In this document: in pieces, positions 50,497-52,832 of the stretch
Layout of the letters: every line of letters starts with the position of its first letter
Numbering within the stretch: position 1 is the first letter of the stretch
Source of the DNA: a virus
Lineage: Duplodnaviria; Caudoviricetes
Length of the DNA: 64,000 nt
Strand: one strand, 5' to 3'
Virus record (IMG/VR): IMGVR_UViG_3300029305_002470
Span: 1 to 64,000 of that record
Translations under genes and position numbers: made by a program
The notes under the pieces: model-generated
Database searches by the model: none
What the model was told of the DNA's origin: nothing
The model's input: only the letters and a program-made list of their open reading frames with translations

Positions 50497-50650
50497 TGTT
50501 TGGATGATATGTTACTCAGAATTTACATAGTTTTTTAACGTAAATGGCGGTAATTTCAAGAGAAAGATGGATTATGATATAGTTGATTGTTTAAATAAAT
50601 AAAATGTCTTAAAATCTTGATAGGTCAATATTTTTAATATGGTAAATGAG

Positions 50651-50679
50651 AAAAACAGTACAAAACGTACTGTTTTTTT
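50651..50679. terminator. bidirectional intrinsic terminator
   Basis: AAAAACAGTAC-aaaac-GTACTGTTTTTTT. Confidence 0.7.
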
Positions 50680-51420
50680 ATTGTGCTTGTTTTTAGGACA
50701 TTGAATGTACGGTTTTTTACTGAATGTATTGTTTTTGGTGGTAAATGTAAAGTTTGTTTTACGTATGTAAAGTATTCTTTACATGGAATAATAGTTTGGA
50801 GATTGTGTGGAAAGAGGGTAGATTAGATGTGGAAATTTTGTAATATACAGGGATATTTAAATGTTGGAAAAGAGTTGGAATTTTAAGGGGTTGAGGGAAT
50901 TTAGGTATATAGTTTATTGCTGGCTGATTCATGTCTGATGACTGGTTTGGTATGGCTTCGAAGAACTTGAAGTTAGTTATCTCTAACTCGTTTGAAAAAT
51001 ACCCCCTCTTGCATAAAATTTTTGTGAAAAAACACAAAATAAGGGATAAAAAAATAGTGAAAATGATTATTTTCACTAAAATAATATATCATTTTATCGG
51101 TCAACTTGATTTTATCTTTTGTTCAAAATCACAAAAAATCAGCTTATATTGCACTGTTTTTTGTGTATTTTCACAATATAACGTGTTCTAATATGGCGTT
51201 GAATTTTGTGGTAAAACACAAAAAAATCCTTAAAATTTGTGTAAAATACACAAAAAATATTGTATACATGTGTACCATGCAAGCGTATAAATACAAGTAT
51301 ACTTGTATACAATAGCGTGTATACTTGTACACACAACACAACAATGTATACAATCAAGTAAATGTATATATGAATACATTCATCTGTATACTTGTATACA
51401 TATGTATATATATTCATATA

Positions 51421-51510
51421 TTAGCACTCATTCATTGTGAGTGATAACAATAATTAGCACTCGTTTATATTGAGTGCTAACTATTAGCACTCGTATTCAG
51501 TGAGTGCTAA
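51421..51510. promoter_or_regulatory. three tandem CIRCE elements (HrcA operators)
   Basis: TTAGCACTC-N9-GAGTGCTAA at 51454-51480 and 51484-51510 (perfect), and 51421-51447 (one mismatch). Confidence 0.9.
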
Positions 51511-51531
51511 TAGTTAAAAGTTTCACAATAT

Positions 51532-51594
51532 TGTTTCACGTGAAACATAACAAAATATTTTTATCTTTATTGTACCTTTGTTTCACGTGAAACA
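51532..51594. promoter_or_regulatory. two parS sites (ParB/Spo0J)
   Basis: TGTTTCACGTGAAACA at 51532-51547 and 51579-51594, matching the bacterial chromosomal parS consensus. Confidence 0.9.
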
Positions 51595-52211
51595 TTGTAC
51601 CATTGTACTAATACATTAATACAATAATATACATGTTAAAAAAATATCAATATTGTTGCTATACACAAATTATGAATGTTTCACGATATAAATTTTGTAT
51701 GTTTCACACAAATAGTAGAATTTTTAACGAGAGTTTTAATAAACTAACTTTTGTGTTTCAGAACAAAAAATTTAAAAATTATTTGTGTATTCAATACAAA
51801 ATTGATAAATTTTTAACGCTATTTTCAGTATAAAAATGAAAAAAACATAAAAAAACAATTGTGTTGTAAACATAAAAAATTTAAAAAAAATTTGTGTAAA
51901 TACACAAATAAAATATAGCATGTCAGCAATACGATTTTATCATATTTTCAGAGCCTCAAAACGTTGAAATTTCAATGCTTCCAGCCTCAAAAATAGCAAA
52001 ATGTTTTTTCAGTTTCCTTCATTATAACGCGTGTAAAGCCCTTCTTGAATTGTATTATTGTATTAATACAGTCATACAATAAAGTCGGTTTAAACTGACA
52101 ATTGACACAACTAAAAAAATTCTTAAAATGATAATTGCAAGGCGGCAAAAAGTCCGCACATTCTCACATAGTCGGTTTAAACTGACAAATACAGAAAGGA
52201 AAGGTTACATT

Positions 52212-52832
52212 ATGAAAACTACAAACAACGCAAAGGTAAAGGTTACAACTCTTAACGCTCAGACAATTGAAATGCTCAACGTTCAGCTTGATATTATCAA
52301 ATCAAAAGGTACAACGTCACTTAATGCTGATATTGCAAGGGCAAAGGCACTCTATACCATTAAAGATGCCGCACTCTATGAGTGCGACAATTGCAAGTCC
52401 TTTAAAGAATGGTATAACGTAAAACATGACGGTACAATCTATGGTATTACGTACAAATCAGCTTGTATTCTTATCAATACATATGCTAACGTATGGTCAC
52501 ATAAAACATTTAAGGCACTGCCTTTATCAATTGCGTGCCGTATGGCGTCAGCTTGCAAAAATGCTGACAATGTAAAAGCATGTGAAAGGCTTGTTGCGGA
52601 AGGTAAAATTAAGCCTGACATGACACAAAACGCCATAAATGATTTACTTAAGGCGGAAGGTATTGTAAAGGCAAAAACTGACAATTTGAGTGCGCCAGCA
52701 CCAAAAACCGCTGACGCTGACAATGACACCGTAAAGGTTGCGCTTGCTATGGTCAACGCTTTTATGAAAAGCAATTGCAAGGATGAAACAATAATGGATA
52801 ATTGGAACGTCATACTTGATGCGCTTAAGTAA
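52212..52832 (+). CDS. hypothetical protein, first gene of the early-type region
   Basis: ATG 52212 after AGAAAGGAAAGG; own promoter and terminator. Confidence 0.75.
   Translation: MKTTNNAKVKVTTLNAQTIEMLNVQLDIIKSKGTTSLNADIARAKALYTIKDAALYECDNCKSFKEWYNVKHDGTIYGITYKSACILINTYANVWSHKTFKALPLSIACRMASACKNADNVKACERLVAEGKIKPDMTQNAINDLLKAEGIVKAKTDNLSAPAPKTADADNDTVKVALAMVNAFMKSNCKDETIMDNWNVILDALK

Follow-up and report, generated by a model that had tools for sequence, protein, structure and literature searches.

Tandem CIRCE-type sites without a chaperone gene, next to parS sites in a non-coding hub of a siphophage genome: possible landing places for host proteins

The CIRCE array and its non-coding hub

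The DNA analysed here (the window) is the initial 64 kb of a record in IMG/VR, designated G000, that is 86.5 kb long and about 71% complete. The portal protein of G000 is ~43% identical to those of the Enterocloster phages PMBT24 and CB457/CB473, with the lactococcal 949-group being more distant kin by the same protein, and the phage would be a siphophage with a genome of roughly 120 kb. Within the window, a 1.7-kb region without credible genes (positions 50497-52211, referred to as the hub) harbours blocks of TTGTG-N6-CACAA palindromes, a GTATAC-rich tract, inverted repeats of the CIRCE type, parS sites and ATTGTAY iterons, and every one of these repeat families is confined to the hub (Table 1).

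Table 1. Features of the hub and the first early gene (window coordinates)
Feature	Position	Strand	Remarks
Intrinsic terminator	50649..50679	+	closes the upstream + strand gene block; left edge of the hub
G/T-rich tract	50800..50930	.	resembles the G-rich tract abutting the PhageTerm-mapped pac of PMBT24
TTGTG-N6-CACAA palindromes, main cluster	51022..51253	.	exact 16-mers at 51022, 51161 and 51206
GTATAC-rich tract	51260..51410	.	7 GTATAC against 0.44 expected; immediately 5′ of the array
CIRCE copy 1	51421..51447	.	TTAGCACTC-N9-GAGTGATAA; 1 mismatch, right arm
CIRCE copy 2	51454..51480	.	consensus, 0 mismatches
CIRCE copy 3	51484..51510	.	consensus, 0 mismatches
parS 1	51532..51547	.	perfect chromosomal consensus TGTTTCACGTGAAACA; 21 bp past CIRCE copy 3
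parS 2	51579..51594	.	perfect chromosomal consensus TGTTTCACGTGAAACA
ATTGTAY inverted iterons	51594..51625; second set 52049-52080	.	repeat search
First early promoter region	52083..52188	+	phage-specific palindrome AGTCGGTTTAAACTGACAA on either side of the promoter
First early gene	52212..52832	+	206 aa; no Pfam or PHROG family

A pattern search for TTAGCACTC-N9-GAGTGCTAA returned three matches in the window and no more, against 0.01 expected from 100 shuffles, none of which reached three. The copies start 33 and then 30 bp apart, which confirms the three back-to-back elements described in a first-pass annotation of this DNA; its designation of all three as CIRCE stands in that each matches the pattern, whereas the perfect consensus holds for two of them and one departs from it at a single position. 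When up to four mismatches were allowed, CIRCE was not found outside the array anywhere in the 86.5-kb record. The sequence has the defining elements of CIRCE, that is, a 9-bp inverted repeat (TTAGCACTC / GAGTGCTAA) and a free spacer of exactly 9 nt, and the three spacers are dissimilar (pairwise identities of 5/9, 3/9 and 5/9). The usual position of CIRCE is at, or just 3′ of, a class I heat-shock promoter, and the array is not so placed. Folding of the array strand yields three hairpins (-24.3 kcal/mol, z -7.5).

The only strong promoter of the hub, a near-consensus TTGACA-16-TAAAAT at 52102-52129, lies 591 nt from the array and drives the 206-aa gene that begins at 52212. This gene is the first credible one past the array, 702 bp on, in agreement with the earlier estimate of about 700 bp. 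At copy 1 the array is abutted or overlapped by only a weak promoter-like site (9/12), and such sites are common in this AT-rich DNA. As to the other elements, a fourth exact TTGTG-N6-CACAA copy is located at 51892-51907 and eight copies are found at one mismatch or less, all within the hub, as are 4/4 of the exact copies in the record; the motif is 2 bp short of a Rex box and is absent from related hubs. In G000, G002 and G005 alike, a GTATAC-rich tract immediately precedes CIRCE (window 51260-51410; L269:4541-4665; L021:10075-10190), and no known ligand was identified for these tracts. GTTTCAC half-sites at 51520, 51678 and 51701 accompany the two parS sites, and the vicinity of the G/T-rich tract may contain the pac site of G000, as judged by analogy with PMBT24.

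A scan of the hub with consensus sequences for the sites of host regulators (DnaA, Spo0A, CtsR, Rex, LexA, cre, CodY, Fur/PerR, NrdR, ArgR, TnrA and Noc) showed enrichment for none of them; only CIRCE, parS, TTGTG-N6-CACAA and GTATAC were hub-confined in that scan. Comparison of the hub with 50,697 phage records by megablast gave no match, and Rfam searches over the hub returned sub-threshold chance matches only.

Genes of the phage and the probable ligand of the sites

The structural model of the first early protein has a pLDDT of 56.8 and a core at residues 53-155, which shows a weak likeness to the DNA-binding domains of Noc, ParB and SopB (Z 3.6-4.9 only); Foldseek returned no match for the model at E <= 0.001. 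From this model it is possible that the protein is a parS-binding protein of the phage. Only five close homologues were present in the protein collection, no related loci were found when sought in IMG/VR, and the first early proteins of three hubs proved unrelated when aligned.

In G000 a 270-aa tyrosine recombinase (PF00589, E 2e-29) is encoded at 67249-68061, 3.2 kb past the end of the window, and the gene is conserved in G000, G002, G015 and PMBT24 (82375-82839 in the last). PMBT24 carries this homologue although it has been described as strictly lytic. The combination of a recombinase with parS hints at an episomal or carrier state.

Six-frame family searches of the G000 record, at ~71% completeness, gave no match to GroES, HSP20 or HrcA, and neither did tblastn of the record with 71 GroES, GroEL, HSP20, HSP90, ClpB and DnaK seeds, so that the earlier observation that no groESL or dnaK is in the window now extends to the whole record. 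Chaperone genes are likewise absent from the related genomes G002 and PMBT24 (CheckV 100% complete). A six-frame search of eight phage records with orphan CIRCE, G000 included, for HrcA (PF01628, PF03444), GroES, HSP20 and ParB_N found none of these. The comparisons of sequences thus support the view that the three sites are genuinely of the CIRCE type, with arms under selection and no chaperone gene to regulate.

In Bacillota, HrcA binds CIRCE and thereby represses groESL and dnaK. The gene hrcA was present in 149/149 sampled genomes of one Bacillota phylum, and a host of G000 that lacks hrcA is therefore unlikely. The ligand of the sites is very probably host HrcA, because the universal bacterial consensus is matched exactly across phage lineages whose own palindromes differ; since these phages have no HrcA homologue and hrcA is found in all of the sampled Bacillota genomes, no known ligand other than host HrcA is plausible. 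The two parS sites of G000 are perfect and of the host type, yet the phage has no ParB_N match; here the weak ParB-like fold in the next gene is a caveat.

CIRCE in other phages and in bacteria

A scan of IMG/VR for perfect CIRCE yielded at least 113 loci. In 53 among the 113 loci listed, a gene for HSP20, GroES/EL, HSP90 or ClpB is found at no more than 2.5 kb, and phages therefore often use CIRCE in the classical manner on chaperone genes of their own. The other 60 of the listed loci include 23 that are cut by the end of the locus, with true orphans among the remainder. Among the chaperone-linked cases are nine contigs of 5-6 kb that are Microviridae-like (Phage_F capsid, Rep ORF2/G2P; L012, L020, L026, L039, L051, L061, L064, L078 and L096), in which an HSP20 gene is present and a perfect CIRCE lies between rep and hsp20. 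In L104:3471-3845 and L110:9713-10169, consecutive gaps between the genes of a small-gene array contain CIRCE nested in longer palindromes (GCACTTT-CIRCE-AAAGTGC, for example), where CIRCE could serve as a hairpin or terminator besides being an operator.

The survey of CIRCE arrays in phage genomes that the first-pass annotation had proposed shows that no fewer than 12 phage contigs, from several lineages, have orphan sites. Across the 30 orphan copies of 12 contigs the arms differ from the consensus at 2.0% of positions and the spacers share 27% pairwise identity, which is the random value; the proposal of selection on the arms, made from the differing spacers of this one array, is thereby borne out. 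Copy spacing varies between phages from 27 to 59 bp, and so does copy number: one in G004 and G005, two in G001 (172 kb), L309 and L319, two to three in L068 / L099 (176 kb) and four in L293 and in G003, where another palindrome is interleaved. In G003, G005, L068, L099, L293 and L309 the end of the last CIRCE is 34-90 nt upstream of the -35 element of a strong early promoter. Scoring of promoters beside CIRCE reached 9/12 in 7/12 orphan contigs and in 37/53 chaperone-linked loci; the score does not discriminate in AT-rich DNA, nor does it separate a role in cis from that of a decoy.

Some orphan arrays are accompanied by sites for other host proteins. L068 / L099 have nine TTGTGAA-N4-TTCACAA boxes, which correspond to the Rex consensus. 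In L319:1181-1410, GTTAGA..TCTAAC palindromes are interspersed with two perfect CIRCE; within ~100 bp after the CIRCE come five perfect DnaA boxes (TGTGGATAA). On the minus strand of the 176-kb phage a TTGACA-17-TAGAAT promoter (11/12; L068:5262-5290) points leftwards into the second CIRCE; its -10 element ends 13 nt from CIRCE, which is the classical operator arrangement, and the transcript would enter the hub of Rex boxes.

In bacteria, perfect CIRCE repeated in tandem at distances of at most 30 bp are uncommon (22/185,579 species genomes) and precede groEL or dnaK wherever the neighbouring gene was identified. Because of this rarity the phage arrays would not be copies of a host layout. In the literature no paper was found on CIRCE or HrcA sites in the non-coding DNA of phages.

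Pairing of CIRCE with parS in related phages

The distance between CIRCE and a perfect parS is 21 bp in G000, 23 bp in G015 and 266 bp in G002. In G002 (116.6 kb; portal identity 42%) the parS site comes after two CIRCE, and in G015 (108.8 kb) parS precedes two CIRCE. The cultured, lytic phage PMBT24, whose host is Enterocloster bolteae, carries at 99365 a CIRCE with two mismatches and, 198 bp on at 99589, a perfect parS, and the same two-mismatch CIRCE-like site is found in the cultured phage CB457P1. The order of the two elements relative to the early genes differs, with CIRCE preceding parS in G000 and the opposite in PMBT24. Position 1 of the PMBT24 record is the pac site as found by PhageTerm (PMC11035940), which places pac inside the CIRCE/parS hub, 374 bp from parS. 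Next to parS a strongly G-rich tract flips to a C-rich one in both PMBT24 (L251:4590-4963 and L252:1-700) and G002 (L038:10380-11000), and the pac site reported for PMBT24 falls at this flip.

The pairing also occurs in a phage of another type. G016 (IMGVR_UViG_3300031760_000924) is a 15.8-kb phi29-like podovirus, as seen from its phi29 capsid, connector, gp9 and gp16, with inverted terminal repeats of ~105 bp (L323:1-110 and L326:12900-13007), each of which contains TTAGCACTC-N10-GAGTGCTAA, 8 nt, and a perfect parS. Protein-primed replication starts at these repeats. The layout of the G016 repeats was also seen at the contig end of G017 (L325).

CIRCE is absent from G010, G011 (100% complete) and G009 (88%), and G011 has three parS-like sites. 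None of the 119 parS-bearing IMG/VR loci listed, all with perfect parS, has a CIRCE-like site, and the CIRCE-parS pairing is thus specific to certain phages and does not simply follow from parS being abundant.

Comparison with known systems

The class I operators of Bacillota (groESL and hrcA-grpE-dnaK-dnaJ) have identical 9-bp arms and a 9-nt spacer; the array differs from them in having no chaperone gene after it, three tandem copies and no overlap with a strong promoter. Phage chaperone genes under CIRCE (HSP20, GroES/EL, HSP90 and ClpB in IMG/VR) indicate that phages exploit host HrcA through this element, and in such loci (for example, groES in L019 and hsp20 in L012) CIRCE classically precedes the gene, whereas the G000 array is an orphan.

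In the tectivirus GIL01, host LexA is the repressor that maintains lysogeny. A host stress repressor is thus used there instead of one of the phage's own, so that host stress triggers development, and the G000 array would be alike in this respect; however, in GIL01 the operators overlap the promoters of lytic genes and depend on gp7, a co-factor supplied by the phage, and no such overlap is seen in G000. As for titration, the chromosomal locus datA titrates DnaA, and titration of repressors by operators occurs on plasmids. A cluster of high-affinity sites without a regulated gene could likewise be a sink; for the G000 array no regulated gene is evident, yet the conserved placement of such arrays in hubs suggests a role in cis. 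We know of no natural phage sink for HrcA that has been described.

A close parallel is phi29, on whose genome parS sites and Spo0A boxes of the host type act in cis (PMC2731898). Like G000, the virulent Bacillus phages phi29 and Nf carry sites for the host partition protein and for a state-sensing transcription factor and encode neither of these proteins (PMC2731898; Meijer et al. 2005 cited there), and their host-factor sites are near early promoters and origins. In the material analysed here the sites lie 591 nt from the early promoter (G000), 34-90 nt upstream of it (six other contigs) or in the terminal repeats (G016), G000 has host parS with no match to a phage ParB, and the phi29-like G016 itself carries the CIRCE-like repeat and parS. 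The present case differs from phi29 in that the transcription factor would be HrcA, which responds to protein-folding stress, and not Spo0A, which governs sporulation, and in that tandem arrays of sites occupy a long non-coding hub in siphophages of 100 kb.

Sensing of the host state in cis and its alternatives

The reading that we prefer, tentatively and at somewhat below an even chance, is that the sites dock host HrcA in cis and so sense the state of the host as phi29 does with Spo0A and Spo0J. The hub would then be a landing place on the phage DNA for host proteins, with HrcA at CIRCE and ParB/Spo0J at parS. In unstressed or slow-growing cells free GroEL would keep HrcA active and HrcA dimers would occupy the three operators; the spacing of 33 and 30 bp, about three helical turns, would set these dimers on one face of the DNA. 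Together they may form a repressive or blocking complex that lies beside parS, precedes the early region and is near the likely pac, while host ParB on parS would hold the silent phage genome with the chromosome. When GroEL becomes saturated, by stress or a burst of protein synthesis, HrcA would be released and the block lifted. We infer both the binding of HrcA and the process that would be controlled in cis, which may be early transcription, replication or packaging.

The context somewhat favours such a role in cis over that of a decoy, because the sites accompany parS, which acts on its own DNA, because the hub holds pac in PMBT24, because CIRCE-like repeats sit at the replication termini of a phi29-like phage, and because arrays lie just upstream of early promoters in other contigs; moreover phi29 provides a precedent with Spo0A boxes and parS (PMC2731898), and the conserved tyrosine recombinase would fit episomal persistence. 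Several observations speak against it, as the G000 array is remote from the sole strong promoter and overlaps only the weak 9/12 site, and the variable copy spacing between phages makes no fixed nucleoprotein architecture evident. Furthermore, the relatives G009, G010 and G011 are without CIRCE and the PMBT24 site is degenerate, the 10-nt spacer of the podovirus sites makes HrcA binding there uncertain, and active HrcA would restrain a lytic phage in healthy cells, which is seemingly costly. To our knowledge HrcA acts solely as a repressor that overlaps promoters and not as an upstream-acting factor.

The alternative with the most to be said for it, possible though in our judgement unlikely, is an HrcA decoy, in which the perfect operators, numbering hundreds as the genomes multiply, would soak up scarce HrcA and derepress host groESL and hrcA-grpE-dnaK-dnaJ, the array having no target in cis. 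The first-pass annotation had put this reading forward, with heat-responsive transcription of early phage genes as its alternative. A phage without chaperones of its own would thereby gain those of the host, and the parS, Rex and DnaA boxes would be similar sponges. It is equally doubtful, in our estimate, that the hub as a whole is a DNA sponge titrating several host regulators (HrcA and ParB here, Rex or DnaA elsewhere) with no phage factor needed; were this so, chaperones would be switched on and partition, replication or redox control disturbed without any phage-encoded factor. A decoy would agree with sites that are tandem, of perfect consensus and away from any recognisable strong promoter, with the finding of GroES or HSP20 in 0/8 orphan-array phages as against CIRCE-linked chaperones in 53 among 113 listed loci, with the scarcity of perfect tandem CIRCE in bacterial species genomes, and with hubs that gather sites for unrelated host proteins (ParB in G000, nine Rex-type boxes in L068, five DnaA boxes in L319). 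However, there are only one to four sites per genome, the one in PMBT24 is degenerate, and titration would be buffered by the autoregulation of hrcA (in the dnaK operon of B. subtilis). A sponge could sit anywhere, yet the arrays consistently occupy the start of the early region, pac or the genome termini, and ParB is not a repressor, so that its sites suggest an action on the phage DNA. In the literature no paper was found that shows titration of HrcA by extra CIRCE operators.

It is rather improbable that the repeats serve the machinery of the phage itself, either as sites for an unrecognised phage protein or as cruciforms of an origin or pac, with the likeness to CIRCE being one of sequence only. 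The hub abounds in palindromes that are particular to each lineage and surely belong to the phage, the hub of PMBT24 contains pac, the array strand folds into three hairpins, and the first early protein may have a weakly ParB-like DNA-binding core; but the 18 arm positions follow the universal bacterial consensus exactly across lineages and GC contents, whereas the phage-specific palindromes differ in every lineage, no HrcA-like DNA-binding domain was found by six-frame searches of eight phages, and the compensatory arm changes that a structural hairpin would allow are not seen. There is a small chance that the array is a boundary element, with HrcA as a roadblock at three sites that makes the spread of ParB clamps and SMC, or of read-through transcription from upstream, one-way, as would suit CIRCE-parS gaps of only 8-23 bp in G000, G015 and G016 and the location of the array after a terminated upstream block and ahead of the early block. 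G000 and PMBT24, though, place CIRCE and parS in different orders with respect to the early genes, and 266 bp separate the two in G002. That the array is a functionless fossil, left by a heat-shock promoter captured from the host or by a chaperone gene that the phage has lost, is very improbable: many phages have CIRCE-controlled chaperone genes from which it could stem, but triplicated copies with unrelated spacers, and arms that stay perfect across distant relatives (42% portal identity), argue otherwise. A fossil promoter was rejected when the six-frame search detected no remnants of chaperone genes.

Significance

New here are the CIRCE-parS pairing, pac in the hub of a cultured relative, the phi29-like terminal repeats, the DnaA-box case and the survey counts. 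Orphan arrays are spread over several lineages of large phages of the gut and rumen and are also present in a phi29-like one, and since the arrays are often paired with parS, Rex-type or DnaA boxes, the distribution of the sites points to a general habit among large phages of Bacillota of packing a non-coding hub with landing sites for host proteins. A cultured relative is at hand in PMBT24 on Enterocloster bolteae. Few cases are known of phages that read the state of the host via host proteins, among them phi29 with Spo0A/Spo0J and GIL01 with LexA; with the orphan CIRCE arrays, the GroEL-HrcA sensor of proteostasis would join these. Either outcome would be new, be it a switch by which stress or growth state governs lytic development and persistence, or a DNA sponge that induces the chaperones of the host.
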